A stretch of 63,904 bases of DNA, filler included, from Stramenopiles sp. TOSAG23-6 (taxonomy: Eukaryota): the NCBI GenBank assembly GCA_900128565.1. It is 4 parts of 4 records of this genome, joined end to end, with 100 filler letters (N's around TTAATTAATTAA, not from the genome) between each part and the next. Parts side by side here need not be neighbours in the genome. Positions count along the whole stretch, not along the records: positions 1 to 17,462 come from LT636079.1; 3 more parts are not named here. The stretch is one strand, 5' to 3'. Shown here in pieces: positions 1-26,263 of this stretch. Under the pieces are notes generated by a model that worked only from the letters and a program-made list of their open reading frames with translations, was not told where the DNA came from and searched no databases. Position 1 is the first letter of the stretch; each line of letters opens with the position of its first letter. A program made the position numbers and the translations under genes.

Positions 1-32
1 CTGTATACTTTTGAAAATATTTTCTTCATCAT

Positions 33-3000: not shown

Positions 3001-4664
3001 TTTGGATTATTCCCCACAAGACGTAAAAATAGTAAGATCATAGCCGATGTTACATCTTGCACTTCATCTACGTATATACGAGTGAACTCATCAGTAGCCG
3101 TGCCGAGATGTGACAACACACAGTCGCCAATGTCAAGCCAAATTGGTTTGTCCTTGCCACCAAGTGTATCAAATTCCTTACTTCGTTTGTATGATTCATA
3201 TACTTCATAGACCTTGAAAATGCTTTCCAATATTTCATCTGATTGAGTCGTATTTTTCTTTGCACTCTCTTTATACTCCTTAAGATTAAGTGCTCTTCCA
3301 TTCTTTGCTGCAAGCACAGATCCTTTGATAATATGTTGTATATGCGCCCACACAACACTTGCAGGTTCATTTAATGCCGACTCTTTGCTATTGACCTTTG
3401 CAAGACTTTTAAACTCATTAAAACGGCTGGCAAACATTTCTTCAGTCACAAATGTAGCTTCATCTGCGGCTCCAGTAACGGATTGATCGATTTGTGCAAA
3501 TATCATACGTTCAGCCATTCCCTCTTCCATCGGCATGAGTTCCTTTTTAGTCTCTCGGGTTAGGTTGAGACTTCTCGAAAAGTATATTTGTTTGGACGCT
3601 TGGCTAGGATCAAGGTGTGCAGGTAAAATATGTTCTGGTTCCGGTTCTAGTTCTGGTGCTAGCTCCAATTCTACTACTTCCGGCATTCTATCACTCTCAA
3701 TCATTAGTGATAAAAGAAGTACAGTTTTACCAGTACCAGGTGGTGCATTAAGAAACAGAAATTTGCCTGTGTTGTGGTCACGAATTTTCTCTTGCTCCTC
3801 CTTTAGCTCGAGAAGTGCACGATAATTGTCCTTTTTGGATTGTCTCTCAAAGTACATTGGGTTTCCATTCGGAACAAAATTATAGTGTCTCTGCGTTTGT
3901 GTAGCTGCTGCTGCTTGATCATCATCTGCAGCATCCATAATTCCTACAGAACCTGATAATATTGCCTGTTCCGTTAATTCAACATATTTTTGAGAGTCGT
4001 CCTTCGAGACAGATCCCGACGCTCTAGCAATATTCTTATGATGTGGTATAAATCTTGTGACATTTACGATGTTGTTGTCGTAAAGTTCAAACTCAAGCCT
4101 GGCACCACCATGCTTTTGCCCGATTCGAACTTTACGTATTCTTGCGTTCATACCATGATGACCTTGAACAGTGTTGGCATGACCACGGCTAAAATCTCCT
4201 TCACTTATATATTGTAAATGTTTAAAAAATGATTTCTTCGCTTCTTTTGTGGCTACATTGTTGATGAAGTCCAAGATGTCACCATTAACGCGAATCGTAT
4301 ATTGTGAAGTCGTGTTTTGTCTGTGTGACAACTCATTTTCATGCGGCAGCTCAATTTTTTTATCGAGAAAAACAGCGATTTCTTCTCCTTCAGGTTCTGG
4401 ATGATCAAGTGCAGATTCAGGTTCTGGATGGATAGGTTCCGGTTTAGTAACTTGATGTATGTCCTCTCTAGTGCTGGCATCAAGCCAGGCGTAAAAGTCA
4501 GTGGAACCTTGAGCTAATTGTAAGAGACTAATCCAGTCATCATTGTTCCCACTTGTTACCTGAGGTTTATGCCGTTTTTTCTTCTGTTTCTTCTTATTCC
4601 CCTTCTTGGATGCAATAACTATAATGCAGGTAACCATAAGAATCAGTATTATAATGGGTCTCAT
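33..4664 (-). CDS. TRANK1-like protein: N-terminal hydrophobic segment, RelE-like domain, UvrD-type SF1 helicase, long ankyrin array (mirror copy)
   Basis: Reverse complement of 12799..17430. Confidence 0.85.
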   Translation of the reverse strand: MRPIIILILMVTCIIVIASKKGNKKKQKKKRHKPQVTSGNNDDWISLLQLAQGSTDFYAWLDASTREDIHQVTKPEPIHPEPESALDHPEPEGEEIAVFLDKKIELPHENELSHRQNTTSQYTIRVNGDILDFINNVATKEAKKSFFKHLQYISEGDFSRGHANTVQGHHGMNARIRKVRIGQKHGGARLEFELYDNNIVNVTRFIPHHKNIARASGSVSKDDSQKYVELTEQAILSGSVGIMDAADDDQAAAATQTQRHYNFVPNGNPMYFERQSKKDNYRALLELKEEQEKIRDHNTGKFLFLNAPPGTGKTVLLLSLMIESDRMPEVVELELAPELEPEPEHILPAHLDPSQASKQIYFSRSLNLTRETKKELMPMEEGMAERMIFAQIDQSVTGAADEATFVTEEMFASRFNEFKSLAKVNSKESALNEPASVVWAHIQHIIKGSVLAAKNGRALNLKEYKESAKKNTTQSDEILESIFKVYEVYESYKRSKEFDTLGGKDKPIWLDIGDCVLSHLGTATDEFTRIYVDEVQDVTSAMILLFLRLVGNNPNRLTLAGDVVQQLVPGVMFRVEDVKDILYFVESENSSRVKLDAETKEPKTLKTNYRNSSGVVEMGNHVKNLLRTQFKLTNAVEDSGIVTGVPPVIWGYAHPRTLQDMRTALGDAPNATLIFRTEAERQVFLNDPLFSRNGSNASLRGSSPGTNDNLQINTVSLHNAKGLEYENVILVNFFSSSVEQIKHSWRHLLNTTSESAEDKLRREGYYDAMEYELRILYTAISRTKTRLFIFETQPIWEKELSKYVIDHWLKPLAAMGHVEPEPELEPEKTHDVTVSDRNIVTILSPEPSSDLTTILQLEQLTATQKRQTAMRNVLLVVQSGDDLDQSYKMYLLQQAQVLAMEGNSPDLQGRIKTVEYCVAGLNGTFESKADTISYMMTCIPVGLTMYASKALIEYGKNATLSADKKEIFRKIALELGVNESALDNFQGKTSGHTSVHKSKATGQVDLDINAVDVDGNTALMRAAIRGIKRDVYELLRQNANVDIQNKSMETALILAAKDNHRAVVDKLLQNGAKLDIKDHHGKTALDYATALETRGVRNAIERQKAKNTVLSVQLLDYVTTGQKGRLKTLLSTNAFDVNESYFNDVNYVTLLMVASQNGHTDTVITLLEHGANVEAKDDNDLTSLMAASDNGHTATVIALLERGANIEAKDNNGVTSLMTACFRGQTETVKALLKRGANINANSNTGWTALMAASDKGNTAIVNALLERRVAIEAKNDAGWTSLMIASQKGKTETVNALLDRDANIEAEDNIGTTSLMAASVNGETDTVIALLKRGPDIEAKDHKGWTSLIWAASKGHTATVNALLERHANTEAKANDDWTPLMFASGNGYIEIVKALLLGGADVHIPDNNVLIPLTFASQKGHTEVVELLLANGADVNLAQMDGITPLWIASEVGHVGVVRLLLGKGANVNQPKQNGVTPLLISSQKGFEGVVQLLLEKGADVNHADNYGSTPLLIASKYGYAEIIQLLEAASAIAEAGEDGP

Positions 4665-4833
4665 AATTGATATTTGGTAATGATATTTCCTTGAATGTTT
4701 CAGAACGAAGGACACGTACGCTGGGGGGCTTTGTGGTGGGTATGGTGCGCGCTGACTCGATCGATGTGGTATAGGAGTAAAACACGTATCTCGAAAAATC
4801 ACAAATATTGTTCTTTACTTATGTATTAAAATT

Positions 4834-6257
4834 TTATTTTTTTTCATTAAGCAAACTCTTCAATTCTTCACTGAAAAAATCCTCTGGTGACTCTCCCTCA
4901 TCGTCTTTTATTGTTGGATCTGCGCCAGCTTGGATTAGTAAAAGTGCAACTTGACTATGCTCACAGCAGCAAGCCATGTTGGTGAAAAAATATGCCACAC
5001 AAAAAAATCGTTAGGTATGGAATTTCGTACTAAAAAAAAAAAAAATCATCATGAAAACGTACATACTCAGTGGTGTGACACCAGTAGAATCCTTTGTATC
5101 AATTGTAGCCCCTCTTCGCAAACACAATTTTACAAGATTTAAATGCATTGTGAAAGAATACTTCAACAAATTAATTTTTTTTTCGTAAGTACAAAATTTG
5201 GTACAAAAAAATAAAAAAAAATCATTAGGTACAAAATATCGTACCAAAAAAAAATGAAAAACATGATGAAAACGTACATGACCTCGGTCACAAGACCAAT
5301 GAAGAACTGTCCCGCCATCGCCATCTTTTGCGTTTATATGTATTTTGGAAAAATATTTGAAATTTTTTTCGTTAGGTACAAAATTTCGTATGAAAAAACA
5401 ATTTCGAATTTGAAAAAAAATAAAACATACATCTGCGCCTTCATCAAGTAACTTTTCTACGGTAGATAAATCTCCATTACTTGCATAATAAAAAATATCC
5501 TTTTTAGAGTTATGATTTTCTTGTGTACTCGGATCAAATTGTAACGTACTTTGAACAGGACCCATTAGCCCCCCTTGTTTCTTTGTTTGAGTAGGGTTAG
5601 GGTTAGTGCTGGGTGGGACTTTTACGTTGGATAAATTATCTTTCATTAGCCCTTGTTTCTTTGTTTGAGTAGGGTTAGGGTTAGTACTGGGTGGGACTTT
5701 TACGTTGGATAAATTATCTTTCATATTATTATTTACAGCTAGTCTTTCGATTTGTTTTATATATAGTTCCATGTATTTTGGAAAAATATTTCAAAAAAAA
5801 AACGTTAGGTACGAAATTTCGTACGGAAAAAAAACTCGAAATTGAAAAAAAATAAAACATACATTGCTACATTTTGTGGCATATTTCCAAGAGCGAACCA
5901 GGCGTCAAACTTTGCGCGTGCACGAAATTCGAATAGTGCAGGTCGTTCGCCTGTACACTTTCCGTATTTAGACTGTTTGAAGAATGCATATAGCTGCAGT
6001 TGCTCTTCTGTCGAAATTGATGATATCAATCCTGCGTGTTTCACAGCAGCATCAAATCTGCTCTTAAGAAGATTGTCTTTCTTTTCATTTGATACTGCGG
6101 CATCTTTCGTTGTTTTGATCGCTTGGCGTTTTTTCGCTATTTTATGACGAAAATAATTCCAGAATACATACGATATAATAACACTAAATGTTGATGCTGC
6201 TACTGACTTACATGATAGCCACTCCAATACTATGTGTAAACGATCTTTGAGTAACAT
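4834..6257 (-). CDS. Acyl-CoA-binding domain + ankyrin repeat protein, ACBD6-like, 5 exons (mirror copy)
   Basis: Mirror of 11206..12629. Introns at 5771-5862, 5338-5430, 5143-5277, 4976-5062. Confidence 0.85.
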
Positions 6258-6700
6258 GACTGAATGCTTTTTCGTAAAATTTGTATGTGCTGGTATATCT
6301 AGTTAATATCGTCAAGGTTGGCTTTTCTTCAGCTCAGCGATCAGAATAGTATAGCCGCACACACAAGCTAACAACTTATATTTGAAAGGATGAACGACTG
6401 ATTATTTACCTATATATTCGTTGCGCGGCAATATTCGTTTTTAAATTTTTCAAAAGTAGAATTTCGATTTTTATCGATTTTTGGCGGTCACAAAATTTCT
6501 CCTTGACAGACGGAAGGAAGGAGGAACGACAGGAAATTAAGTATACAAGTAAAACTTTGCTAAAACTTTGTTCCCTTTGTTTTGGGCATTTATAGGATCA
6601 ATCAAAGAAAATTGTTCAAAGGACAAACCCTTTCACATTAACTCCTGTCAAGGATTCGTTTGAGAAGAAAGTAGGAGATAGAACAAATCCTATCGGTAGG

Positions 6701-7459
6701 ATGCCTGGAGCTCTGGAAATGTTTGAAAGGGAGCCTAGAGCAAAAAAAGAGGACACTGAAAATCCAATGCCTACTGGAGGTATGAATCTAGGTTTGAATG
6801 CAGGATTTCAATTAGGGGAGAATTCTGTAATAGGTAAAAGAACATGTATTGTAGTTGATATGCGTAATGGAGCGGCTGCACCAGCTACCTCAAACAAAAG
6901 TACAAAAAATTCAAAGTCAAAAAAAACTAATTCAGCAAAAGTTCCAGGTTGCTCGGATAAGGTTGAAGTAGGTTATTTTTTTCTTCTTTTGTCAGCGTTG
7001 CTTGTTTATATTGCAATCGGTATAATTGCAGGAAAACCAGGAAATGGTGATTTAAAGAAAAGTGTTCACTGTTGTGCTCCTTTTCACATAGTATTTGGGG
7101 CAATAGGTTGGTGGTTCCCGCCTCTTTTTCTTTTCTTTGTGTTTTATCAAATTGCCGATCATTATGGATTTTGGTGGAAAGAGCCTCTCTATCAATTTCA
7201 CGATGAACAAGAGAGTTGGATGGAAACTTTTACTGATGTATTAGAATATTTTGTTGGCCTTTTTCTTGTTGAAGTATGTCGATGGGTTCGTCCTTTACGT
7301 TTTAGTTGTATGAAACTTTGTTGGCTTCATTGGAGACGGACAGGTCGTTGTACTGACGCTCCTCCATTTTGTATTCACAACTGTTGCACATCTTGTGTTG
7401 ATCGTTTTGAAGATGTTCTTGAGGAACATACTGTTATTAAAGTGAAAGAAGTATCATAG
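6701..7459 (+). CDS. Hypothetical multi-pass membrane protein, intronless
   Basis: 252-aa ATG-started ORF with several hydrophobic segments and a Cys-rich C-terminus. Confidence 0.7.
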   Translation: MPGALEMFEREPRAKKEDTENPMPTGGMNLGLNAGFQLGENSVIGKRTCIVVDMRNGAAAPATSNKSTKNSKSKKTNSAKVPGCSDKVEVGYFFLLLSALLVYIAIGIIAGKPGNGDLKKSVHCCAPFHIVFGAIGWWFPPLFLFFVFYQIADHYGFWWKEPLYQFHDEQESWMETFTDVLEYFVGLFLVEVCRWVRPLRFSCMKLCWLHWRRTGRCTDAPPFCIHNCCTSCVDRFEDVLEEHTVIKVKEVS

Positions 7460-7616
7460 CAGTTGAAATGTGAAACTAATGTAATTGTTCCAAAAATGAG
7501 TGAGAAGTGTTGTTTACGTAGATTTAAATTTTTGGGAGTCAGTGCCACGTGTGACCAAATATTAATCCAGCTACTACAGGCCGGTACTCTACACTACAGT
7601 AGAAAAAAATAGAATT

Positions 7617-8731
7617 ATGACAAAATCTACTAGCACTTTTCAATGGTTAGCTGCTGCATCTGCTACTCTTACTATTGCTACAAGTATTTTCTATTTTTGG
7701 CAACGTAGAATTGCTAAAAAATATAAAAAGACGGAGGATATAGTTAATGGCGAGGCAATCTTTGTAAAAGAACGAATGACAATGATAATAACAACTTCAC
7801 CTACCCAGTCAAACCCCTCAACATCTCTGATTGAAGAACTGTTTCATTCATTTTCCTATGTACCTGAATTAAAGCACTGCCATAAAATTATTGTTTGTGA
7901 TGGCATAAAAATTGCTCACGAAGGTCGCAAGTCTAAATATCGTAGTGGAATCATTACAACCAAAGCTCTCGCGGCATACAACTTATACTTGAAAAAAATT
8001 CGTCAGCTCGCTACACGTGAGGAAGGTCAGTGGACAAATGTTCAGATTTTGGAACTAAATAATAGGAATGGTTTTGGTTTTGCTGTTAAAGAGGCACTAG
8101 AAAAGGTAAAAACTGACTATGTCATGGTCTGTCAACATGTACGTTTTCATCATTTTGATTTCAATTTTTTTTTTTGGTATGAAATTTTGTACCTAACGAT
8201 TTTTTTTTGACATTTTTTTTTTTCACACAACATGACCGACTATTTGGACAAAAATGGCACGGTTTGCCAATGACCCTTCGTGCTCTAGAAGCATTTCACG
8301 ACGAAGTTAGTTTTATTGGTCTGCCAACTAATTCTACACGTGATTATATTCATCGTATGCGTGTATGTTTTAATTTCAATTTTTTACATATTTTTTTTTT
8401 CGTACGAAATTTTGTACCTAACAAATTTTAGTTTTTTTTGAAATATTTTTTCACAATACATAGTCGATTTCATATCGATCTCTCAAAAAAGTGGAAGCAC
8501 TTTAAAGGTGGAGTAAAATTATTACCAATGCTCGTTTGGTTAGATAGTACTCATATAGCATCCGTTCAGTACTATAGAGATTTCGTGTTTAATAAAGATC
8601 GAAAATTGGTCTCAAAAGGTGGTTTTATGTATGTTTTCAATTTTTTTTTTTTTTTTTTTTAGTATGAAATTTTGTACATAAAAAAAAAAAAATTTAAAAT
8701 TATACGTAACAAAAAAAACGAATTCAAAAAA
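7617..8731 (+). CDS. Putative GT-A-fold glycosyltransferase-like protein, 3'-truncated at the fold-back axis
   Basis: N-terminal TM segment, then IITTSP, IIVCDG, GFGFAV and VMVCQHD motifs. Removing introns 8139-8233 and 8363-8461 (both GT..AT) gives a continuous frame. A third intron starts at 8629. Confidence 0.65.
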
Positions 8732-9846
8732 TTTTTTGAATTCGTTTTTTTTGTTACGTATAATTTTAAATTTTTTTTTTTTTATGTACAAAATTTCATA
8801 CTAAAAAAAAAAAAAAAAAAAATTGAAAACATACATAAAACCACCTTTTGAGACCAATTTTCGATCTTTATTAAACACGAAATCTCTATAGTACTGAACG
8901 GATGCTATATGAGTACTATCTAACCAAACGAGCATTGGTAATAATTTTACTCCACCTTTAAAGTGCTTCCACTTTTTTGAGAGATCGATATGAAATCGAC
9001 TATGTATTGTGAAAAAATATTTCAAAAAAAACTAAAATTTGTTAGGTACAAAATTTCGTACGAAAAAAAAAATATGTAAAAAATTGAAATTAAAACATAC
9101 ACGCATACGATGAATATAATCACGTGTAGAATTAGTTGGCAGACCAATAAAACTAACTTCGTCGTGAAATGCTTCTAGAGCACGAAGGGTCATTGGCAAA
9201 CCGTGCCATTTTTGTCCAAATAGTCGGTCATGTTGTGTGAAAAAAAAAAATGTCAAAAAAAAATCGTTAGGTACAAAATTTCATACCAAAAAAAAAAATT
9301 GAAATCAAAATGATGAAAACGTACATGTTGACAGACCATGACATAGTCAGTTTTTACCTTTTCTAGTGCCTCTTTAACAGCAAAACCAAAACCATTCCTA
9401 TTATTTAGTTCCAAAATCTGAACATTTGTCCACTGACCTTCCTCACGTGTAGCGAGCTGACGAATTTTTTTCAAGTATAAGTTGTATGCCGCGAGAGCTT
9501 TGGTTGTAATGATTCCACTACGATATTTAGACTTGCGACCTTCGTGAGCAATTTTTATGCCATCACAAACAATAATTTTATGGCAGTGCTTTAATTCAGG
9601 TACATAGGAAAATGAATGAAACAGTTCTTCAATCAGAGATGTTGAGGGGTTTGACTGGGTAGGTGAAGTTGTTATTATCATTGTCATTCGTTCTTTTACA
9701 AAGATTGCCTCGCCATTAACTATATCCTCCGTCTTTTTATATTTTTTAGCAATTCTACGTTGCCAAAAATAGAAAATACTTGTAGCAATAGTAAGAGTAG
9801 CAGATGCAGCAGCTAACCATTGAAAAGTGCTAGTAGATTTTGTCAT
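8732..9846 (-). CDS. Mirror copy of the putative glycosyltransferase-like gene
   Basis: Reverse complement of 7617..8731. Confidence 0.65.
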
Positions 9847-10003
9847 AATTCTATTTTTTTCTACTGTAGTGTAGAGTACCGGCCTGTAGTAGCTGGATTA
9901 ATATTTGGTCACACGTGGCACTGACTCCCAAAAATTTAAATCTACGTAAACAACACTTCTCACTCATTTTTGGAACAATTACATTAGTTTCACATTTCAA
10001 CTG

Positions 10004-10762
10004 CTATGATACTTCTTTCACTTTAATAACAGTATGTTCCTCAAGAACATCTTCAAAACGATCAACACAAGATGTGCAACAGTTGTGAATACAAAATGGA
10101 GGAGCGTCAGTACAACGACCTGTCCGTCTCCAATGAAGCCAACAAAGTTTCATACAACTAAAACGTAAAGGACGAACCCATCGACATACTTCAACAAGAA
10201 AAAGGCCAACAAAATATTCTAATACATCAGTAAAAGTTTCCATCCAACTCTCTTGTTCATCGTGAAATTGATAGAGAGGCTCTTTCCACCAAAATCCATA
10301 ATGATCGGCAATTTGATAAAACACAAAGAAAAGAAAAAGAGGCGGGAACCACCAACCTATTGCCCCAAATACTATGTGAAAAGGAGCACAACAGTGAACA
10401 CTTTTCTTTAAATCACCATTTCCTGGTTTTCCTGCAATTATACCGATTGCAATATAAACAAGCAACGCTGACAAAAGAAGAAAAAAATAACCTACTTCAA
10501 CCTTATCCGAGCAACCTGGAACTTTTGCTGAATTAGTTTTTTTTGACTTTGAATTTTTTGTACTTTTGTTTGAGGTAGCTGGTGCAGCCGCTCCATTACG
10601 CATATCAACTACAATACATGTTCTTTTACCTATTACAGAATTCTCCCCTAATTGAAATCCTGCATTCAAACCTAGATTCATACCTCCAGTAGGCATTGGA
10701 TTTTCAGTGTCCTCTTTTTTTGCTCTAGGCTCCCTTTCAAACATTTCCAGAGCTCCAGGCAT
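10004..10762 (-). CDS. Mirror copy of the hypothetical membrane protein
   Basis: Reverse complement of 6701..7459. Confidence 0.7.
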   Translation of the reverse strand: MPGALEMFEREPRAKKEDTENPMPTGGMNLGLNAGFQLGENSVIGKRTCIVVDMRNGAAAPATSNKSTKNSKSKKTNSAKVPGCSDKVEVGYFFLLLSALLVYIAIGIIAGKPGNGDLKKSVHCCAPFHIVFGAIGWWFPPLFLFFVFYQIADHYGFWWKEPLYQFHDEQESWMETFTDVLEYFVGLFLVEVCRWVRPLRFSCMKLCWLHWRRTGRCTDAPPFCIHNCCTSCVDRFEDVLEEHTVIKVKEVS

Positions 10763-11205
10763 CCTACCGATAGGATTTGTTCTATCTCCTACTTTCTTCT
10801 CAAACGAATCCTTGACAGGAGTTAATGTGAAAGGGTTTGTCCTTTGAACAATTTTCTTTGATTGATCCTATAAATGCCCAAAACAAAGGGAACAAAGTTT
10901 TAGCAAAGTTTTACTTGTATACTTAATTTCCTGTCGTTCCTCCTTCCTTCCGTCTGTCAAGGAGAAATTTTGTGACCGCCAAAAATCGATAAAAATCGAA
11001 ATTCTACTTTTGAAAAATTTAAAAACGAATATTGCCGCGCAACGAATATATAGGTAAATAATCAGTCGTTCATCCTTTCAAATATAAGTTGTTAGCTTGT
11101 GTGTGCGGCTATACTATTCTGATCGCTGAGCTGAAGAAAAGCCAACCTTGACGATATTAACTAGATATACCAGCACATACAAATTTTACGAAAAAGCATT
11201 CAGTC

Positions 11206-12629
11206 ATGTTACTCAAAGATCGTTTACACATAGTATTGGAGTGGCTATCATGTAAGTCAGTAGCAGCATCAACATTTAGTGTTATTATATCGTATGTATT
11301 CTGGAATTATTTTCGTCATAAAATAGCGAAAAAACGCCAAGCGATCAAAACAACGAAAGATGCCGCAGTATCAAATGAAAAGAAAGACAATCTTCTTAAG
11401 AGCAGATTTGATGCTGCTGTGAAACACGCAGGATTGATATCATCAATTTCGACAGAAGAGCAACTGCAGCTATATGCATTCTTCAAACAGTCTAAATACG
11501 GAAAGTGTACAGGCGAACGACCTGCACTATTCGAATTTCGTGCACGCGCAAAGTTTGACGCCTGGTTCGCTCTTGGAAATATGCCACAAAATGTAGCAAT
11601 GTATGTTTTATTTTTTTTCAATTTCGAGTTTTTTTTCCGTACGAAATTTCGTACCTAACGTTTTTTTTTTGAAATATTTTTCCAAAATACATGGAACTAT
11701 ATATAAAACAAATCGAAAGACTAGCTGTAAATAATAATATGAAAGATAATTTATCCAACGTAAAAGTCCCACCCAGTACTAACCCTAACCCTACTCAAAC
11801 AAAGAAACAAGGGCTAATGAAAGATAATTTATCCAACGTAAAAGTCCCACCCAGCACTAACCCTAACCCTACTCAAACAAAGAAACAAGGGGGGCTAATG
11901 GGTCCTGTTCAAAGTACGTTACAATTTGATCCGAGTACACAAGAAAATCATAACTCTAAAAAGGATATTTTTTATTATGCAAGTAATGGAGATTTATCTA
12001 CCGTAGAAAAGTTACTTGATGAAGGCGCAGATGTATGTTTTATTTTTTTTCAAATTCGAAATTGTTTTTTCATACGAAATTTTGTACCTAACGAAAAAAA
12101 TTTCAAATATTTTTCCAAAATACATATAAACGCAAAAGATGGCGATGGCGGGACAGTTCTTCATTGGTCTTGTGACCGAGGTCATGTACGTTTTCATCAT
12201 GTTTTTCATTTTTTTTTGGTACGATATTTTGTACCTAATGATTTTTTTTTATTTTTTTGTACCAAATTTTGTACTTACGAAAAAAAAATTAATTTGTTGA
12301 AGTATTCTTTCACAATGCATTTAAATCTTGTAAAATTGTGTTTGCGAAGAGGGGCTACAATTGATACAAAGGATTCTACTGGTGTCACACCACTGAGTAT
12401 GTACGTTTTCATGATGATTTTTTTTTTTTTTAGTACGAAATTCCATACCTAACGATTTTTTTGTGTGGCATATTTTTTCACCAACATGGCTTGCTGCTGT
12501 GAGCATAGTCAAGTTGCACTTTTACTAATCCAAGCTGGCGCAGATCCAACAATAAAAGACGATGAGGGAGAGTCACCAGAGGATTTTTTCAGTGAAGAAT
12601 TGAAGAGTTTGCTTAATGAAAAAAAATAA
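11206..12629 (+). CDS. Acyl-CoA-binding domain + ankyrin repeat protein, ACBD6-like, 5 exons
   Basis: ACBP motif LQLYAFFKQ...RAKFDAW...AM|ELYI. Ankyrin repeats GAD|INAKDGDGGTVLHWSCDRGH|LNLVKL...TPLSM|ACCCEH are restored by removing introns 11601-11692, 12033-12125, 12186-12320 and 12401-12487. Confidence 0.88.
11601..11692 (+). mobile_element. Introner-like intron, GT..AT (representative family member)
   Basis: AT|GTATGTTTT...CCGTACGAAATTTCGTACCTAACG...GAAATATTTTTCCAAAATACAT|G. Removal restores the ACBP segment VAMELYI. Confidence 0.85.
12033..12125 (+). mobile_element. Introner-like intron, GT..AT
   Basis: Same family motifs. Removal restores ankyrin GADINAKD. Confidence 0.85.
12186..12320 (+). 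mobile_element. Introner-like intron with duplicated core, GT..AT
   Basis: Two GTAC..ATTTTGTACYTA cores. Removal restores RGHLNLVKL. Confidence 0.8.
12401..12487 (+). mobile_element. Introner-like intron, GT..AT
   Basis: Removal restores TPLSMACC. Confidence 0.8.
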
Positions 12630-12798
12630 AATTTTAATACATAAGTAAAGAACAATATTTGTGATTTTTCGAGATACGTGTTTTACTCCTATACCACATC
12701 GATCGAGTCAGCGCGCACCATACCCACCACAAAGCCCCCCAGCGTACGTGTCCTTCGTTCTGAAACATTCAAGGAAATATCATTACCAAATATCAATT

Positions 12799-15700
12799 AT
12801 GAGACCCATTATAATACTGATTCTTATGGTTACCTGCATTATAGTTATTGCATCCAAGAAGGGGAATAAGAAGAAACAGAAGAAAAAACGGCATAAACCT
12901 CAGGTAACAAGTGGGAACAATGATGACTGGATTAGTCTCTTACAATTAGCTCAAGGTTCCACTGACTTTTACGCCTGGCTTGATGCCAGCACTAGAGAGG
13001 ACATACATCAAGTTACTAAACCGGAACCTATCCATCCAGAACCTGAATCTGCACTTGATCATCCAGAACCTGAAGGAGAAGAAATCGCTGTTTTTCTCGA
13101 TAAAAAAATTGAGCTGCCGCATGAAAATGAGTTGTCACACAGACAAAACACGACTTCACAATATACGATTCGCGTTAATGGTGACATCTTGGACTTCATC
13201 AACAATGTAGCCACAAAAGAAGCGAAGAAATCATTTTTTAAACATTTACAATATATAAGTGAAGGAGATTTTAGCCGTGGTCATGCCAACACTGTTCAAG
13301 GTCATCATGGTATGAACGCAAGAATACGTAAAGTTCGAATCGGGCAAAAGCATGGTGGTGCCAGGCTTGAGTTTGAACTTTACGACAACAACATCGTAAA
13401 TGTCACAAGATTTATACCACATCATAAGAATATTGCTAGAGCGTCGGGATCTGTCTCGAAGGACGACTCTCAAAAATATGTTGAATTAACGGAACAGGCA
13501 ATATTATCAGGTTCTGTAGGAATTATGGATGCTGCAGATGATGATCAAGCAGCAGCAGCTACACAAACGCAGAGACACTATAATTTTGTTCCGAATGGAA
13601 ACCCAATGTACTTTGAGAGACAATCCAAAAAGGACAATTATCGTGCACTTCTCGAGCTAAAGGAGGAGCAAGAGAAAATTCGTGACCACAACACAGGCAA
13701 ATTTCTGTTTCTTAATGCACCACCTGGTACTGGTAAAACTGTACTTCTTTTATCACTAATGATTGAGAGTGATAGAATGCCGGAAGTAGTAGAATTGGAG
13801 CTAGCACCAGAACTAGAACCGGAACCAGAACATATTTTACCTGCACACCTTGATCCTAGCCAAGCGTCCAAACAAATATACTTTTCGAGAAGTCTCAACC
13901 TAACCCGAGAGACTAAAAAGGAACTCATGCCGATGGAAGAGGGAATGGCTGAACGTATGATATTTGCACAAATCGATCAATCCGTTACTGGAGCCGCAGA
14001 TGAAGCTACATTTGTGACTGAAGAAATGTTTGCCAGCCGTTTTAATGAGTTTAAAAGTCTTGCAAAGGTCAATAGCAAAGAGTCGGCATTAAATGAACCT
14101 GCAAGTGTTGTGTGGGCGCATATACAACATATTATCAAAGGATCTGTGCTTGCAGCAAAGAATGGAAGAGCACTTAATCTTAAGGAGTATAAAGAGAGTG
14201 CAAAGAAAAATACGACTCAATCAGATGAAATATTGGAAAGCATTTTCAAGGTCTATGAAGTATATGAATCATACAAACGAAGTAAGGAATTTGATACACT
14301 TGGTGGCAAGGACAAACCAATTTGGCTTGACATTGGCGACTGTGTGTTGTCACATCTCGGCACGGCTACTGATGAGTTCACTCGTATATACGTAGATGAA
14401 GTGCAAGATGTAACATCGGCTATGATCTTACTATTTTTACGTCTTGTGGGGAATAATCCAAATAGGCTTACTCTTGCCGGGGATGTTGTGCAACAGCTCG
14501 TTCCTGGTGTAATGTTTCGTGTTGAAGATGTCAAGGATATTTTATACTTTGTTGAATCTGAGAATTCTTCTCGTGTAAAATTAGATGCTGAGACAAAAGA
14601 ACCAAAGACATTGAAAACTAATTATCGCAATAGTAGTGGGGTTGTGGAAATGGGTAATCATGTAAAGAATCTTCTGAGGACACAATTCAAACTTACAAAT
14701 GCAGTCGAAGATTCCGGTATTGTAACAGGTGTACCTCCTGTAATATGGGGCTATGCGCATCCACGTACATTACAGGACATGCGCACAGCTTTGGGTGATG
14801 CACCAAATGCGACACTGATCTTTCGTACCGAGGCAGAACGTCAAGTGTTTTTGAACGATCCATTATTTAGTCGTAATGGAAGTAATGCAAGCTTGCGTGG
14901 ATCATCGCCTGGCACGAATGATAATCTACAAATCAATACTGTGAGTTTGCACAATGCGAAAGGACTGGAGTATGAAAATGTGATTCTCGTAAATTTCTTT
15001 TCATCATCTGTTGAGCAGATTAAACATAGTTGGAGGCACTTACTGAATACTACTAGTGAATCAGCGGAAGACAAATTACGACGGGAAGGATATTATGATG
15101 CAATGGAATACGAGTTGAGAATACTGTATACTGCAATCTCTCGAACAAAGACTCGTTTGTTTATATTTGAGACGCAACCAATATGGGAGAAGGAGCTCAG
15201 TAAATATGTAATTGATCATTGGTTGAAGCCGTTAGCAGCAATGGGACACGTGGAACCCGAACCAGAACTAGAACCTGAAAAAACACATGATGTCACAGTT
15301 TCTGACCGAAATATTGTTACTATCCTTTCACCAGAACCATCTAGTGACCTAACTACAATATTACAGCTTGAACAACTTACTGCAACACAAAAGAGACAAA
15401 CTGCAATGAGAAATGTTCTCCTTGTGGTGCAAAGTGGCGACGACCTCGATCAATCATACAAGATGTATCTATTACAACAAGCGCAAGTCTTAGCTATGGA
15501 AGGAAATTCTCCAGACCTACAAGGTAGAATCAAGACTGTAGAGTACTGTGTGGCAGGTTTGAACGGCACATTTGAATCAAAAGCTGATACAATTTCATAT
15601 ATGATGACTTGTATTCCTGTTGGACTTACTATGTATGCTTCAAAAGCACTTATTGAGTATGGTAAGAATGCGACTTTGTCTGCAGATAAGAAAGAAATTT

Positions 15701-17430
15701 TTCGAAAAATTGCTCTTGAACTTGGTGTAAATGAATCAGCATTGGATAATTTTCAGGGTAAAACAAGCGGGCATACCTCTGTCCATAAAAGCAAGGCGAC
15801 CGGGCAAGTTGATTTAGATATTAATGCTGTTGATGTGGACGGCAACACTGCTTTAATGAGAGCAGCAATTCGTGGCATTAAACGAGATGTATATGAATTG
15901 CTACGACAAAATGCTAATGTAGACATTCAGAACAAGTCGATGGAAACTGCTTTGATTCTTGCTGCAAAAGATAACCATCGCGCGGTGGTGGATAAGCTGC
16001 TCCAAAATGGGGCAAAACTTGATATAAAAGATCACCATGGTAAAACTGCATTAGACTATGCCACTGCATTGGAAACAAGAGGAGTCCGGAATGCCATAGA
16101 GCGACAGAAGGCCAAAAATACAGTATTATCTGTACAACTCCTTGACTATGTTACGACGGGCCAAAAGGGTCGTTTGAAGACATTGTTATCAACCAATGCA
16201 TTTGATGTAAATGAAAGTTATTTTAATGATGTTAATTATGTCACATTATTGATGGTTGCTTCTCAAAATGGTCATACAGATACTGTGATTACTTTATTGG
16301 AACACGGTGCAAATGTTGAGGCAAAAGATGATAATGACTTGACGTCATTGATGGCTGCTTCCGACAATGGTCATACAGCAACTGTAATTGCTTTATTGGA
16401 ACGAGGTGCAAATATTGAAGCAAAGGATAATAATGGCGTAACTTCATTGATGACTGCTTGTTTTCGTGGCCAAACAGAAACTGTGAAAGCTTTATTGAAA
16501 CGTGGTGCAAATATTAATGCAAATTCTAATACTGGTTGGACAGCATTGATGGCTGCTTCTGATAAGGGCAATACAGCAATTGTGAATGCTTTATTGGAAC
16601 GCCGTGTAGCAATTGAAGCAAAGAATGATGCTGGATGGACGTCGTTGATGATTGCTTCTCAAAAAGGAAAAACAGAAACTGTGAATGCTTTATTGGATCG
16701 CGATGCAAATATTGAAGCAGAGGATAATATTGGGACTACATCATTGATGGCTGCTTCTGTAAATGGCGAAACAGATACTGTGATTGCTTTATTGAAACGT
16801 GGTCCAGATATTGAAGCAAAGGATCATAAGGGCTGGACATCATTAATCTGGGCTGCTTCAAAGGGCCATACAGCAACTGTGAATGCTTTATTGGAACGCC
16901 ATGCAAATACTGAAGCAAAGGCTAATGATGATTGGACACCATTGATGTTTGCTTCTGGAAATGGCTATATAGAAATTGTGAAAGCTTTATTGCTAGGCGG
17001 TGCAGACGTTCATATACCGGATAATAATGTGTTGATACCATTGACGTTTGCTTCTCAAAAGGGTCATACAGAAGTTGTTGAATTACTTCTCGCTAATGGT
17101 GCTGATGTCAATCTTGCTCAAATGGATGGAATTACCCCATTGTGGATTGCTTCAGAGGTTGGTCATGTTGGAGTAGTTCGATTACTTCTTGGTAAAGGTG
17201 CAAATGTCAATCAGCCTAAACAAAACGGAGTTACGCCATTGCTTATTTCTTCTCAAAAGGGTTTTGAGGGAGTAGTTCAACTACTTCTTGAAAAGGGTGC
17301 TGATGTCAATCATGCTGATAATTATGGAAGTACCCCATTGCTTATTGCTTCAAAGTATGGTTATGCGGAAATAATTCAACTACTTGAAGCTGCGAGTGCG
17401 ATTGCTGAAGCAGGTGAAGATGGACCATGA
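12799..17430 (+). CDS. TRANK1-like protein: N-terminal hydrophobic segment, RelE-like domain, UvrD-type SF1 helicase, long ankyrin array; intronless
   Basis: SF1 motifs APPGTGKT, IYVDEVQD, AGDVVQQ, LKTNYRNS, HNAKGLEY, LYTAISRTK. More than 15 ankyrin repeats. The first ATG is at 12799 (MRPIIILILMV); the ORF track starts earlier at a GTG. Confidence 0.85.
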   Translation: MRPIIILILMVTCIIVIASKKGNKKKQKKKRHKPQVTSGNNDDWISLLQLAQGSTDFYAWLDASTREDIHQVTKPEPIHPEPESALDHPEPEGEEIAVFLDKKIELPHENELSHRQNTTSQYTIRVNGDILDFINNVATKEAKKSFFKHLQYISEGDFSRGHANTVQGHHGMNARIRKVRIGQKHGGARLEFELYDNNIVNVTRFIPHHKNIARASGSVSKDDSQKYVELTEQAILSGSVGIMDAADDDQAAAATQTQRHYNFVPNGNPMYFERQSKKDNYRALLELKEEQEKIRDHNTGKFLFLNAPPGTGKTVLLLSLMIESDRMPEVVELELAPELEPEPEHILPAHLDPSQASKQIYFSRSLNLTRETKKELMPMEEGMAERMIFAQIDQSVTGAADEATFVTEEMFASRFNEFKSLAKVNSKESALNEPASVVWAHIQHIIKGSVLAAKNGRALNLKEYKESAKKNTTQSDEILESIFKVYEVYESYKRSKEFDTLGGKDKPIWLDIGDCVLSHLGTATDEFTRIYVDEVQDVTSAMILLFLRLVGNNPNRLTLAGDVVQQLVPGVMFRVEDVKDILYFVESENSSRVKLDAETKEPKTLKTNYRNSSGVVEMGNHVKNLLRTQFKLTNAVEDSGIVTGVPPVIWGYAHPRTLQDMRTALGDAPNATLIFRTEAERQVFLNDPLFSRNGSNASLRGSSPGTNDNLQINTVSLHNAKGLEYENVILVNFFSSSVEQIKHSWRHLLNTTSESAEDKLRREGYYDAMEYELRILYTAISRTKTRLFIFETQPIWEKELSKYVIDHWLKPLAAMGHVEPEPELEPEKTHDVTVSDRNIVTILSPEPSSDLTTILQLEQLTATQKRQTAMRNVLLVVQSGDDLDQSYKMYLLQQAQVLAMEGNSPDLQGRIKTVEYCVAGLNGTFESKADTISYMMTCIPVGLTMYASKALIEYGKNATLSADKKEIFRKIALELGVNESALDNFQGKTSGHTSVHKSKATGQVDLDINAVDVDGNTALMRAAIRGIKRDVYELLRQNANVDIQNKSMETALILAAKDNHRAVVDKLLQNGAKLDIKDHHGKTALDYATALETRGVRNAIERQKAKNTVLSVQLLDYVTTGQKGRLKTLLSTNAFDVNESYFNDVNYVTLLMVASQNGHTDTVITLLEHGANVEAKDDNDLTSLMAASDNGHTATVIALLERGANIEAKDNNGVTSLMTACFRGQTETVKALLKRGANINANSNTGWTALMAASDKGNTAIVNALLERRVAIEAKNDAGWTSLMIASQKGKTETVNALLDRDANIEAEDNIGTTSLMAASVNGETDTVIALLKRGPDIEAKDHKGWTSLIWAASKGHTATVNALLERHANTEAKANDDWTPLMFASGNGYIEIVKALLLGGADVHIPDNNVLIPLTFASQKGHTEVVELLLANGADVNLAQMDGITPLWIASEVGHVGVVRLLLGKGANVNQPKQNGVTPLLISSQKGFEGVVQLLLEKGADVNHADNYGSTPLLIASKYGYAEIIQLLEAASAIAEAGEDGP

Positions 17431-17462
17431 ATGATGAAGAAAATATTTTCAAAAGTATACAG

Positions 17463-17562
17463 NNNNNNNNNNNNNNNNNNNNNNNNNNNNNNNNNNNNNN
17501 NNNNNNTTAATTAATTAANNNNNNNNNNNNNNNNNNNNNNNNNNNNNNNNNNNNNNNNNNNN
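17463..17562. other. Artificial contig linker (N44-TTAATTAATTAA-N44)
   Basis: Six-frame stop spacer, repeated at 34971-35070 and 52369-52468. Confidence 0.98.
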
Positions 17563-18460
17563 CTCTTGTGTGGAATCACCGCTCGGTAAATCCATATTTC
17601 TGTCTAGAATAAATGATGGAATTTGTGACTGCTGTGATGGAAGTGATGAAAAATCTACCATTGGGTGCATAAATGTGTGTAGTATCGAGCAATCTGAGTT
17701 GAATGCGAAGTATTCGGGACGTCTTTCTGGATGTCAAGCAAAGCTCAAACTATTAGAATTAACTCACTCCAAGCAAGTTTTCTATGAAAAGACACAGAGA
17801 GAGACAATAGAAAAGCAATCGGAATTCAATAAACAGCTGAAATTGTTAAATTTGGAATTAAATAATCATAGAGCAATGCTGCAAGAGAGGAAACAACTAC
17901 ATGAAGAATTTCAGCTTAAAGGATCAGCTTATTTAGGTTTAGTACGTTGCTTGAAAAATAGTTCTCCAGATGAAACTTCCCACTGTTCTTTTTCTAATAT
18001 AGAAATATTGAATGTTATTAATCATATGGTTGACACAAATCCGACTGAAGTCAAACGTGTATCCGAAACTTTACTAAACTCGAATTCGATGAGGAGAATT
18101 TCAACTGATAATAAAAATAAAGAAGATTGCTCTTGTAGTAGTATTGATTATGACACCTCATTTAATCTACAATTAATTTGGAGACAATTGTCCCAAAAAC
18201 AAGAAATTCCGTCAATTGAATACATAGAAAATCAAAAAAGAGAAATTGAGGATTCAAAAAATAAATTACAACGGATTCAACGGATGTCAGAGAAAGAGTA
18301 TCTTTTAGATTTTGGTCCTGATCGTATTTGGTGGCCGTTACTCGGTAAATGCGTTGAAAAAAAAGAATATAGCGTATGTTTGATGAAATACGCAAAACAA
18401 GGTAATGAAAGTTTAGGTAGATTTTCTGGCTGGGTCGATCCAACTGAGTCAATACCCAAT
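17563..18460 (+). CDS. Glucosidase II beta subunit (PRKCSH)-like, partial
   Basis: SRINDGICDCCDGSDE, a coiled coil, then the start of an MRH domain (FGPD..W..L.GKC...YSVC...SLGRFSGW). 5'-truncated. The expected end of the MRH domain is missing after intron 18461-18552. Confidence 0.8.
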
Positions 18461-18552
18461 GTTTGTTTTATTTTTTTTCAATTTAGAATTTATTTTTCGT
18501 ACGAAAATTTGTACCTAACGATTTTTTTTTGAAATATTTTTCCAAAATACAT

Positions 18553-19374
18553 GAATTACACGAACTTATTTTGTCAAATGCAGGTTCGAATCTTGAGTGG
18601 CATCGACAACAAAGCAGTGAATATGATTTCAGTGATGGCTTTGTTGTCCCAGACGATGCCCCAATTGAAGAAGCAGAGTCAAGTTCTACAGAAAGTCCAA
18701 AACAAAACATTACTAGGACACGTTTACGGAAACGTCGTCATCGAATTCAACGTAATAACCCTAACCCTAATAACCCTACAAATACAAATTGTCTGCCGGA
18801 TTTTGATATGACGACTCCACCTAGACAGAAGTTAAAACGCTTAAAAAGAGTCACAGATACAGAGGATAATACTTTTAGTACTACGACTCGTATTAATTCA
18901 CACGTAGGAATAAGTAATAATGAAGAAGTTAAGAATTTTGACCCTAGCCCTAACCCTAAGAGTTTTGACAATCGTAAAAGCCCTAACCCTACTAAGAGTA
19001 ACAAAAGCAACGTTTGGAATGATTTTGCTTTCCGTAAAACCGCAAAAAAAGCAAACAATATTTTACATGCGTCCACCACACATCCTTGTAGTACTGACCA
19101 AAACAATAAAAAAATAAATATAATAAGTGAACAAAATAGTTCTGAAATTGAAAATTCAAAACTAGTAAAGTTTGAAAATAATAATAATGAAAATTCATGT
19201 CGAGAAAAGGCACGACTTTCAAAACATGAAATGAGACGACAAGACCTTTACTTTCAAAACATGGCGAAAGAGAGAGCAAAACAACGTCTACAAGAATTTC
19301 GTTTGTCGAGGTCTTCAGTGATACCTGAAACTCCACCTGACTATTCAAGAACAAGAAGGAGTAAATACTTTTAG
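18553..19374 (+). CDS. Terminal exon of a hypothetical low-complexity protein, probably a different gene from the upstream exon
   Basis: Open 273-codon frame after the GT..AT intron 18461-18552. No MRH residues. Contains several NPNP/SPNP telomeric inserts. Confidence 0.55.
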   Translation, partial: ELHELILSNAGSNLEWHRQQSSEYDFSDGFVVPDDAPIEEAESSSTESPKQNITRTRLRKRRHRIQRNNPNPNNPTNTNCLPDFDMTTPPRQKLKRLKRVTDTEDNTFSTTTRINSHVGISNNEEVKNFDPSPNPKSFDNRKSPNPTKSNKSNVWNDFAFRKTAKKANNILHASTTHPCSTDQNNKKINIISEQNSSEIENSKLVKFENNNNENSCREKARLSKHEMRRQDLYFQNMAKERAKQRLQEFRLSRSSVIPETPPDYSRTRRSKYF

Positions 19375-19430
19375 GGTTAGGGTTTGGGTTGAAACTCCAC
19401 CTGACTATTCAAGAACAAGAATGAGTAAAT
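19326..19430 (+). repeat. 41-bp direct duplication flanking a telomeric insert
   Basis: TGAAACTCCACCTGACTATTCAAGAACAAGAA(G/T)GAGTAAAT at 19326-19366 and 19390-19430, with TTAGGGTTAGGGTTTGGG between them. Confidence 0.9.
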
Positions 19431-19511
19431 TCATAAATGATGTAAATGATGTAAATTATGTTTAATTGATATTGTAAAGTNTTTTTTTTTTGTCTTTTTG
19501 TATGAATACAT

Positions 19512-20096
19512 TCAAAGAATTGCACATTTTCCACTCTTTTTTTTGTTAAGACTGGCTTTTACTGCTGCTGAGAAAACTTCCTTAAGTCCTTCACCAGTAA
19601 TGGAAGCACATTCAACATATTCTACAGCTCCAATTTCCTTCATTAAACTTTGAGCCTCAGCAGTCGAAATAGGTTTTTTTTTTCGATATGCCAGTGCTTC
19701 AATTGTGTCATCATCATCCCTTAGGTCCATTTTAGTACCAACAAGTATAATATTAGCCCCACTAGATTCAGAATTTATGATACTAGGAAACCATTTCTCC
19801 CGAACATTAGAGAACGAAGCTGGGCTGATAACGGAAAATGCAATAAGGAATGTATCAACTTCTTTATATGCCAATCCGCGTATATTATCATAGTCTTCTT
19901 GCCCTGCTGTGTCCCATAGGTTTAGTCTTATTCTCCCGTGTGAAGTAGTGTCAATATCAGCTGTGTAGTTATCAAATATAGTTGGTACATAATCTTCTGG
20001 AAAACTACCCTTTGTATATGATATTAACATACAGGTTTTTCCAACAGCACCGTCACCAATAGTAACGACCTTGATGCTTTTACTTGGCTCTGCCAT
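19512..20096 (-). CDS. Rho-family (Rac-like) small GTPase, intronless
   Basis: GDGAVGKT, YVPTIFDNY, LWDTAGQEDYD, GTKMDLR, ECAS, and a polybasic tail ending in CAAX (CAIL). Confidence 0.95.
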   Translation of the reverse strand: MAEPSKSIKVVTIGDGAVGKTCMLISYTKGSFPEDYVPTIFDNYTADIDTTSHGRIRLNLWDTAGQEDYDNIRGLAYKEVDTFLIAFSVISPASFSNVREKWFPSIINSESSGANIILVGTKMDLRDDDDTIEALAYRKKKPISTAEAQSLMKEIGAVEYVECASITGEGLKEVFSAAVKASLNKKKSGKCAIL

Positions 20097-20365
20097 TGTA
20101 CGTAATCCAAATAGAAATGTTGGAAAAAAACTATATAAATCTTCTTATCTCATCTCTCGCTTGGAATTTTTGGAGGAACGAACTTTGAACATTTGAAAAT
20201 TTAAATTGATGTTTCGTACACGAAATCTAGTTAATTTGTTTGACACGTGTCCCGATCATTCATTGACTTGTATGGTTGTACCACAACACTATAAATATAT
20301 ATTATAAAGTTTCAATTTTGTGAGCTTGAAATGTGTAATACAATTTGCTGACCGTTAAGAAAGCG

Positions 20366-21398: not shown

Positions 21399-21716
21399 TT
21401 ATTAATAGTTATGATTAAATAAATGTTGTATATGCACTGTAACTATTATTCCACGTCCATGGCCATGACATTGTCCGATTTTTTTGTTCAGCGCGTTTTT
21501 TTTTGACTAAATCAAATCATGATGTCGATGTCGTCACTACTACTGTACCAGGTATACTTCTAGTAGGCTACAATAATATATTTGTTATATTGAGTATTGT
21601 ATTGTGGTATACATTTTTGTAATTGGATTCATTGAGCATACCAACAGTAGGTAGATAAAGGATAGAAGTTATCTGGCAATTGCGAAATCGGATATATAAT
21701 TCTATACACTTGTTAG

Positions 21717-22304: not shown

Positions 22305-22476
22305 AAATTGTATCAAAAAAGTAAACAAAATGTATTGTGAAAAAAATTTAAAAAAAAATTAAACAAAAATTGTTAGGTACAAAATTTCGTACAAAAACAA
22401 AATCTAACGGTTTCATTGTAATTTGTTTTAATAATATAAAAGATTATCTAAAACACTTTCCTTCGCCAAAATATAC

Positions 22477-26202: not shown

Positions 26203-26263
26203 ATTAAAAAAAAACGAAATAAAAAAAATAGTAATTACACAATTTTACTTAGGAAGTTGTAGA

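Follow-up and report, generated by a model that had tools for sequence, protein, structure and literature searches.

What keeps a 16-nt palindrome in place directly before the branch site of a spliceosomal intron? The question is raised by a 63,904-base stretch of DNA from Stramenopiles sp. TOSAG23-6 (the window), in which the palindrome GTACGAAATTTCGTAC runs into the branch-site pentamer CTAAC. An original prediction, made from the sequence of this stretch, saw in the palindrome an RNA stem that presents the branch adenosine, an extended pairing site for U2 small nuclear RNA (snRNA) or a dimeric transposase site, and suggested that it might replace the 3' AG as the specificity signal of a family of introns. 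Our analysis leads to the following reading, to which we assign a probability of about 0.6. The palindrome forms the centre of a spliceosomal intron that is repeated and mobile-element-like and belongs to a family resembling introners and miniature inverted-repeat transposable elements (MITEs). The selected unit is GTACCTAAC, which comprises the right arm and the branch site and is preceded by a T-rich stretch, and the left arm is a relic of the founder. Selection would then act on one half of the motif, as a branch site, and the other half would be left over from a mobile founder.

The window consists of four contigs joined through N44-TTAATTAATTAA-N44 linkers (17463-17562, 34971-35070 and 52369-52468). 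Contig 1 (1-17462) and contig 3 (about 35071-52368) are 100% self-complementary about their midpoints with no spacer, 1-8731 mirroring 8732-17462 and 34968-43719 mirroring 43720-52471, and both look like assembly or amplification artefacts or chimeras. Because every feature in these perfect self-mirrors is doubled, the analysis was restricted to the non-redundant part of the window (8732-34967 and 43720-63904, about 46 kb). When up to three mismatches were allowed, GTACGAAATTTCGTAC was matched 51 times in the window, compared with a mean of 0.31 and a largest count of 2 in 100 shuffles; the mirrored contigs inflate this number, and 34 of the 51 matches fall in non-redundant sequence. The motif therefore lies far above chance, as had been proposed, and part of its apparent abundance came from the mirroring. 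Two of the three perfect copies originally reported were found, at 11639 and 27227 (the latter one base away from the position first given); the third, at 32825-32840, reads ATACGAAATTTCGTAC, starts with A and is imperfect. As shown below, neither the presence of the palindrome in most family introns nor the conservation of the motif as a whole withstood analysis.

The palindrome belongs to an intron family with a common plan. Up to one mismatch, GTACCTAAC occurs 44 times in the non-redundant sequence, and 28 candidate introns were recovered from 5' and 3' end motifs alone, the core being unused. In alignments the subfamilies share 5', core and 3' blocks along their whole length, in the order 5' GTAYGTTTT, a variable stretch containing ..CAATTTCGAATTT.. 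or ..CATCATGAATTT.., a T-run, the core, CTAAC, a second T-run (to which one subfamily adds an A-run) and a terminal block, which reads ...ATATTTTTCACAATAC or else ...CCAAAATAC / ..GAAATATTTTTCCAAAATAC and is followed by two more bases, usually AT, before the exon. The introns are usually about 90-130 nt long and have no coding capacity. As expected of introners, near-identical copies interrupt unrelated genes, among them those for adenylosuccinate lyase, a presumed acyl-CoA-binding/ankyrin protein and a glucosidase II beta-like protein; a further host gene, read from its translation alone, presumably encodes an ABC-F ATPase. Removal of the predicted intron left at least 40 open codons on both sides in 19 of 30 sense cases versus 1 of 30 antisense cases, and the introns with branch-point anchors at 34012 and 63274 stay in frame only when the 3' end is moved by 1-2 nt. 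For analysis of the ends we used a curated set of 24 introns, in which four ends were set by hand from RNA, homology or the printed sequence, and where neither RNA nor homology supports an end, the reading frame determines it only to within 3 nt. Each position of the 5' consensus GTAYGTTTT except Y4 is 88-100% conserved in this set (G1 96%, T2 96%, A3 88%, G5 92%).

That the family is spliced from messenger RNA in the sense orientation is shown by RNA joints, by open frames and by homologues that align across two junctions. Contigs of three metatranscriptome runs and one DNA run were aligned to 17600-30300, and among the RNA contigs listed four family introns are bridged (Table 1); stretches that no RNA contig covers are uninformative. 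The joints 23671->23778 and 23134->23244 are each present in contigs of two runs, both from one study, and 23344->23456 and 26902->27008 in single contigs each; the joint 23671->23778 is absent from the contigs of the DNA run aligned alongside. Another RNA joint, 30043->30159, was set aside as probably foreign or artefactual: it came from one run, has a short side and lies inside the putative ABC-F coding sequence.

Table 1. Palindromes, branch site and family introns in the window.
Feature	Position	Strand	Basis or remark
Perfect 16-nt palindrome GTACGAAATTTCGTAC, core of the family intron in the acyl-CoA-binding/ankyrin gene	11639-11654	+	Sequence match
CTAAC branch-site pentamer adjoining the palindrome; with core positions 13-16 forms the conserved 9-mer GTACCTAAC	11655-11659	+	Sequence
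Second, independent perfect palindrome, preceded by GTTAG at 27222-27226	27227-27242		Minus strand reads palindrome+CTAAC
Mirror image of 11639-11654; third exact match, not an independent copy	5809-5824	-	Within self-complementary contig
Family intron, subfamily A, 92 nt, GTATGT...ACAT	11601-11692	+	Removal opens frame: 146 and 252 codons either side
Family intron, 100 nt, GTAGGT...ATAT, adenylosuccinate lyase gene, with the second perfect palindrome	27179-27278	-	Homologues ...WGYI|S.GY.KQ gap-free across the junction
Family intron, 181 nt, internal partial duplication, ATACGAAATTTTGTAC+CTAAC, GT..AT	26545-26725	-	Ends by adenylosuccinate lyase homology
Family intron, subfamily B, near-palindrome ATACGAAATTTCGTAC (32825-32840) + CTAAC (32841-32845)	32786-32882	+	Ends motif-predicted only; flanking open frames short
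Family intron, intact stem GTACGAAATTTTGTAC+CTAAC, 6/6 pairs, GT..AT	23672-23777	-	RNA contigs, two runs
Family intron, degenerate left arm ATAGAAAATTTTGTAC+CTAAC, 4/6 pairs, GA..GT	23345-23455	-	One RNA contig
Family intron, degenerate left arm TAAGAAAATTTTGTAC+CTAAC, 3/6 pairs, canonical GT..AG	23135-23243	-	RNA contigs, two runs
Family intron, left arm lost, AATTTTTTTTTTGTAC+CTAAC, 1/6 pairs, GT..TT	26903-27007	-	One RNA contig

Which part of the motif do these copies retain? We aligned 43 non-redundant copies, oriented by CTAAC and without gaps (alignment A1, which favours copies with an intact right arm), and numbered the core 1-16, with C0 as the unpaired base just before it and C17 and C21 after it. 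The perfect palindrome accounts for 2 of the 43 copies, far from the majority first supposed; the commonest form is GTACGAAATTTTGTAC (7/43), with ATACGAAATTTTGTAC in 5/43 and GTATGAAATTTTGTAC in 2/43. Position 12, which faces G5 in the stem, carries T in place of C in 36 of the 43 copies, so the family consensus is itself not a perfect palindrome. All six stem pairs, G-U pairs allowed, are possible in 14 copies and five pairs in 12. The idea that the commonest variants keep the hairpin through wobble pairs is right for the common T12 form, which retains a G-U pair, but the second variant named in its support, GTATGAAATTTTGTAC, is one of the rare forms.

The two arms are unequally conserved. 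Mismatches to the A1 consensus occupy 70 of 258 cells in the left arm (positions 1-6) versus 11 of 258 in the right arm (positions 11-16, with C or T accepted at 12). G or C is kept in the left arm at G1 in 21/43, C4 in 27/43 and G5 in 28/43 copies, much like the unpaired flanking C0 (25/43); the corresponding numbers in the right arm and branch site are 38/43 for G13, 43/43 for C16, 41/43 for C17 and 38/43 for C21, and T14 is invariant. The motif had been described as better conserved than the splice dinucleotides, and this description suits the right arm and branch site but not the left arm; a fair ranking of the motif against GT and the 3' dinucleotide is impossible here because every intron sample conditions on some motif. 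Exact matches among the 28 core-independent candidates number 11 for the left arm, 21 for the right arm, 22 for CTAAC and 22 for GTACCTAAC, and the discordant cases number 0 with the left arm only versus 10 with the right arm only (McNemar p=0.002).

Decay of the left arm follows the age of the copies. The less a copy resembles its nearest relative outside the core, the more left-arm mismatches it has (Spearman rho -0.55, p=0.006, n=24); the right arm shows little change (rho -0.34, p=0.11). Nor do the core and the adjoining poly-T decay at one common rate: decay is faster in the left arm than in the T-run (consensus agreement 49-88% versus 85-98%) and slower in the right arm. Thus, only the right half of the palindrome, within a nine-base branch signal, is being preserved, while the left half decays with copy age.

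These data bear directly on a functional RNA hairpin, in which a 6-bp stem ending one base before CUAAC would present the branch adenosine or stack on the U2-branch helix and so aid the recognition of introns without a 3' AG. The predicted stem of six pairs and a 4-nt loop has an energy of -6.5 kcal/mol in the perfect form and -4.4 kcal/mol in the common T12 form, 7 of 8 folds predict it as the local structure, and the perfect form in a 41-nt context is more stable than shuffled sequences (z=-2.8). Consistent with such a role, the commonest change, C12 to T, retains a G-U pair, and 26 of the 43 copies keep five or six of the six pairs. However, the stem is weak, the T12 form folds no better than shuffles (z=-1.1), and substitutions are not guided by pairing: 73.3% of cells are paired in A1 versus 74.2% after the 3' letters were shuffled, 435 of 500 shuffles reached at least the observed value, and a single double-sided change was seen. 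Covariation is likewise absent (score 0.101 versus 0.107 in shuffled alignments, six pairs), unlike what a conserved hairpin would show, and an Rfam search of the window returned 0 matches. Moreover, three of the four RNA-verified introns keep just 1, 3 or 4 of the six pairs, the left arm decays with copy age, and the ATAGT... sublineages, in which three pairs are broken, occur in conserved genes with open frames across the junction. Because the left half decays and introns with broken stems are spliced, splicing does not need the hairpin, and the stem is dispensable; we therefore regard a stem that presents the branch adenosine as quite unlikely. Since the left arm is under no detectable constraint and erodes like its flanks with age, the 6-bp hairpin of young copies would be an inherited by-product, not a required splicing structure.

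For the right arm, pairing with U2 offers a plausible explanation, and the idea of an extended U2 site may be kept for this arm only. CUAAC is the standard branch-site core, and the conserved GUAGUA box of U2 pairs with the yeast-type branch site UACUAAC. The family introns combine a GUAUGU-like 5' site with a UACUAAC-like branch site that has one extra C, two signals of U2-type introns with a yeast-like extended branch site; GUAC followed by CUAAC would be a UACUAAC-type site with this additional base. We propose that the founder element carried a palindrome or near-palindrome and that, after insertion, only G13, T14, A15 and C16 together with CTAAC came under purifying selection, as the nine-nucleotide branch site GUACCUAAC. 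From the yeast pairing we infer a register in which UAC and UA-C would pair with the U2 box, the extra C and the branch A would be bulged and G13 would form a wobble pair. The left arm (G1, C4, G5), without detectable constraint, erodes towards A/T at the rate of unpaired flanking G/C and in step with copy age. If this pairing is right, the right arm must be single-stranded, and the hairpin is then neutral at best; a neutral hairpin agrees with how common the weakened T12 form is and with a left arm that decays freely.

Another conceivable role of the right arm is to form a bridge that links the 5' splice site to the branch site. Since GUAC is self-complementary, base pairing of the right arm YGUAC with the real 5' site might draw that site up to the branch A; the left arm GUACG, a copy of the 5' pentamer, would then be a competing decoy. 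The 5' site is GTAYG in most copies and the right arm YGTAC, which would allow five pairs. We consider this very improbable: the 5' variants GTTCG, GAATG, GTAAG, GTAGG and GTTTG would break the pairing and are uncompensated in the invariant right arm, and the 5' site must stay free for U1 and U6.

If the branch signal is kept, does it also choose the 3' splice site? The canonical 3' AG of U2-type introns is not a property of this family. The 3' dinucleotides of the 24 curated introns are AT (19), AG (2), GT (1), TT (1) and AA (1); the four RNA-verified introns end in AT, GT, AG and TT, and the two with homology-fixed ends are both GT..AT. Replacement of the AG by the motif as specificity signal is not supported: between the branch A and the 3' end lie 32 to 60 nt in 23 of the 24 curated introns, and 124 nt in the remaining one, which has a second, degenerate branch-like site. 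With so variable a distance, the motif alone cannot set the position of the cut. A likelier determinant than the core is the conserved 3' terminal block. Its T-run is 100% conserved and ..CA.AATAC.. 79-96% conserved in the curated introns, values that owe something to how the introns were found. No simple rule for the 3' cut emerged among the curated introns. A fixed ruler from the branch site is ruled out by the distances just given, and use of the first AT, CAT or ACAT after the branch was ruled out by eye, since several copies contain earlier occurrences. Pairing of the intron termini was also rejected as the definer of the 3' end; it amounts to about 4-7 bp, and variant 5' sites are uncompensated.

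Non-AG 3' ends and an invariant branch motif would also suit U12-type introns of the minor spliceosome, which tolerate ends such as GT-AT, a rare class in the available parts of splice-site surveys, and have a highly conserved branch site. In U12-type introns the 5' consensus is RTATCCTT, and about 10-15 nt separate the branch site from the 3' end. The family, in contrast, has the 5' site GTAYGTTTT, a branch A at 32-60 nt in all but one curated intron, and T-runs. The 5' site and the branch distance contradict this assignment, to which we give next to no credence; the lack of U12-family RNA in the window is uninformative for a 64-kb sample.

A broader model takes in both the 3' ends and the mobility of the family, and we put it forward tentatively, as possible but on the whole doubtful. 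The family would be an active MITE-like introner of a MAST-3-type stramenopile, and a host spliceosome without need of a 3' AG would cut two bases past the terminal ...AYAC, whichever bases these are (AT, TT, GT or AG), the two bases being the duplicated target. The element would be self-sufficient in its signals, bringing an extended 5' site, the nine-nucleotide branch site and the 3' block, and the palindrome would act as a hairpin or a transposase site in fresh insertions and be dispensable later. If true, this would be AG-independent, element-encoded 3' splice-site choice in a free-living stramenopile.

The palindromic form of the founder calls for an explanation of its own. The non-redundant part of the window holds 9 perfect 16-nt palindromes versus 1.95 in block shuffles (maximum 7), which makes a founder palindrome by pure chance unlikely; some founder-level function may therefore have existed. 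The main rival for this form is a role at the level of DNA, in which the palindrome would be the site of a dimeric transposase or other DNA-binding protein, or would form a cruciform or hairpin in transposition, needed in source copies only and freely lost after insertion. The copies have the look of non-autonomous DNA elements in their length, their lack of coding capacity and their short inverted ends GTAY...RTAC, which have AT on both sides. In 17 of the 24 curated introns the last two nucleotides of the intron repeat the last two of the upstream exon (AT/AT 15, AG/AG 1, TT/TT 1; scored by eye), as a 2-bp target duplication would give. Because AT is self-complementary and the repeats are very short, target duplication and inverted repeat are inseparable here. 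Such a role would also predict the decay of one arm after insertion. However, it leaves the retention of the right arm unexplained, and forms with a broken palindrome are themselves multi-copy (ATACG in 7 copies, ATAG in 4), so that a perfect dyad is not needed for spread unless these copies were duplicated in some other way. No transposase domain was found in the 10 open reading frames scanned, although 64 kb is a small sample. Since the two halves are unequally kept and the ATACG... and ATAGT... sublineages exist in several copies, a symmetric DNA site is not what is maintained. On this evidence we judge a DNA-level role to be unlikely overall; a function confined to the founder may nevertheless explain why it was palindromic.

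Several copies depart from the simple plan. Tandem core+CTAAC units occur within single introns: three cores at 49305, 49378 and 49430, spaced about 52-73 nt, in 49301-49450 (-), and pairs at 46683 and 46730 within 46667-46735 (+) and at 12235 and 12275 within 12219-12280 (+). The centre of the element is prone to internal duplication. At 52593-52809 (-), two family elements stand head to tail with only a shared AT between them (..CACAATAC-AT-GTACATTTTT..), and the upstream one has kept its left arm and lost the right arm and CTAAC. In 62960-63060, a minus-oriented copy of the core (ATACGAAATTTTGTAC+CTAAA) has plus-strand family introns on either side, at 62814 and 63232, and the 3' end of this copy reads GTATGTTTTT on the plus strand, resembling a 5' splice site. 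Other perfect 16-nt palindromes are also associated with introns: TACAATATATATTGTA (21150-21165) is centred on the predicted 3' junction of the intron 21060-21159, and AAAAAAATATTTTTTT (21135-21150 and 23144-23159) lies within family introns at the junction of the A-run and the 3' block.

A number of points weigh against a selected right arm joined to a relic left arm. The copies come from only about 46 kb, and they share descent, the ATACG and ATAGT forms being sublineages; because they are related in this way, the p-values overstate the number of independent events. Every sample is conditioned on some motif, A1 is enriched for an intact right arm and only the set of 28 candidates is independent of the core. 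The U2 register is carried over from other organisms to a host in whose 64 kb analysed here an Rfam search found no U2 snRNA. In a few candidates, the putative introns that start at 52809 and 54528 (-) and the core at 53159, it is the left arm that survives, the right arm or CTAAC being lost. The hairpin, as the predicted local minimum-energy structure, may have a modest kinetic role in young copies. Finally, a founder palindrome is improbable by chance alone, and it may have had some function in the founder.

The family resides in AT-rich DNA that encodes ordinary eukaryotic genes. Besides adenylosuccinate lyase and the glucosidase II beta-like protein, we recognised a Rho GTPase, a papain-like protease and a UvrD-like helicase fused to ankyrin repeats. 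The acyl-CoA-binding/ankyrin protein, the ABC-F ATPase and an acyl-CoA dehydrogenase are what we take these products to be from their translations alone. The helicase gene corresponds to a 1593-codon open frame without introns at 12649-17430 (+), with weak UvrD-like helicase domains and a long ankyrin-repeat array. Among named matches, the best one to the Rho GTPase shares 89% identity and has a source label starting with GSMAST32; from this label the host is read as probably a MAST-3-type marine stramenopile, which is uncultured.

The same stretch is present in seawater metagenomes and metatranscriptomes. Family introns have a summed contig depth that exceeds that of adjoining exons by a factor of hundreds to thousands, in DNA and RNA runs alike (for example, 13575 versus about 8 in X3; regions 18448-18871, 22264-23111, 26080-27351 and 29048-29471). 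This excess hints at very many intron copies in the sampled populations, depth being no copy number. Contigs and gaps break within family introns (34905-34970, 52328-52368, 52469-52493 and 53153-53211), which is expected if the repeat fragments the assembly. An exact 20-nt scan of public metagenome contigs with the subfamily-A 3' block gave at least 15 loci, 0 of them with GTACCTAAC or the core; for this reason, these loci are taken as chance matches in AT-rich DNA.

Regarded as an RNA structure, the palindrome is ordinary, a decaying relic; the intron family that it marks is of greater interest. An uncultured, globally distributed lineage of marine grazers has an intron family that carries its own invariant nine-nucleotide branch site and that, according to metatranscriptome contigs, is spliced at non-AG 3' ends. 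Its copies of differing age form a natural series showing which parts of an introner the spliceosome needs: the 5' site, GUACCUAAC and the 3' terminal block, and not the stem. In practical terms, gene callers restricted to GT-AG introns will mis-model most genes of the host organism.

The literature searched, supplements not covered, contains no description of such introns in MAST lineages; in the main text of the MAST genome papers examined 'intron' is absent or appears in methods only, and their supplements may hold tables. Likewise, the available text of the introner and non-canonical-intron literature compared here describes neither a central palindrome abutting an invariant nine-nucleotide branch site nor a family ending mostly in AT. 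The closest known systems are introners, transposon-derived intron families described, in the available text, from Micromonas, Aureococcus, dinoflagellates, Chrysochromulina and others, some with short target duplications in which one splice site is carried and the other is taken from the duplication (Gozashti et al., 10.1101/2022.06.06.494994). The family shares with introners, as far as they are described there, many near-identical short sense introns in unrelated genes and hints of short inverted ends and of a short duplicated target. As in the introners of Chrysochromulina, going by that account, one splice site is carried by the element and the other end falls at or within the target that is duplicated. 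Unlike in the introners so described, the duplicated dinucleotide is usually AT, so that the intron ends in AT, TT or GT and not in AG, and an invariant nine-nucleotide branch site adjoins a central palindrome; neither 'branch' nor 'palindrom' occurs in the available text of 10.1101/2022.06.06.494994.

The non-canonical introner elements of Amoebophrya have terminal inverted repeats and direct repeats over their borders, according to the accessible portion of the report (Farhat et al. 2021, PMC7789003). There, too, a marine protist has repeated introns with non-GT-AG ends, border direct repeats, MITE-like features and predicted hairpins. In the portion available, however, the Amoebophrya inverted repeats are 8-20 nt long, terminal and join the intron ends, and both splice dinucleotides vary, whereas the present family has its palindrome in the middle, directly against the branch site, retains the 5' GT and shows a terminal inverted repeat of no more than about 4-7 nt.

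The branch signal itself is closest to the yeast type, with an invariant CUAAC, UAC just upstream, a strong GUAUGU-like 5' site and a branch site conserved more than the 3' site; it differs in the extra C (UAC-C-UAAC), the nearly invariant G before it and the non-AG 3' end. The non-canonical introns of Fritillaria reportedly derive from MITEs (Henriet et al. 2019). In the text available for Fritillaria borealis, lineage-wide non-GT/AG introns are processed by a modified major spliceosome, with U2AF paralogues and m6A on snRNA offered as explanation (10.1101/2025.08.15.670264). The likeness lies in lineage-wide non-GT/AG introns and a shifted 3'-site recognition; Fritillaria belongs to a different kingdom, both of its intron ends are non-canonical, and the available text makes no mention of a branch-site palindrome. 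In euglenids and diplonemids, non-conventional introns have non-GT-AG ends, and RNA pairing has been proposed to help to define the intron, according to the available text (PMC12621601). That pairing, as described there, joins the two intron ends, whereas the hairpin found here is local to the branch site and not conserved. A family with RNA-supported non-AG 3' ends in an uncultured stramenopile merits genome-wide study, and it bears on the choice of 3' splice sites without AG, which has so far been studied mainly in Fritillaria, Amoebophrya and euglenozoans.

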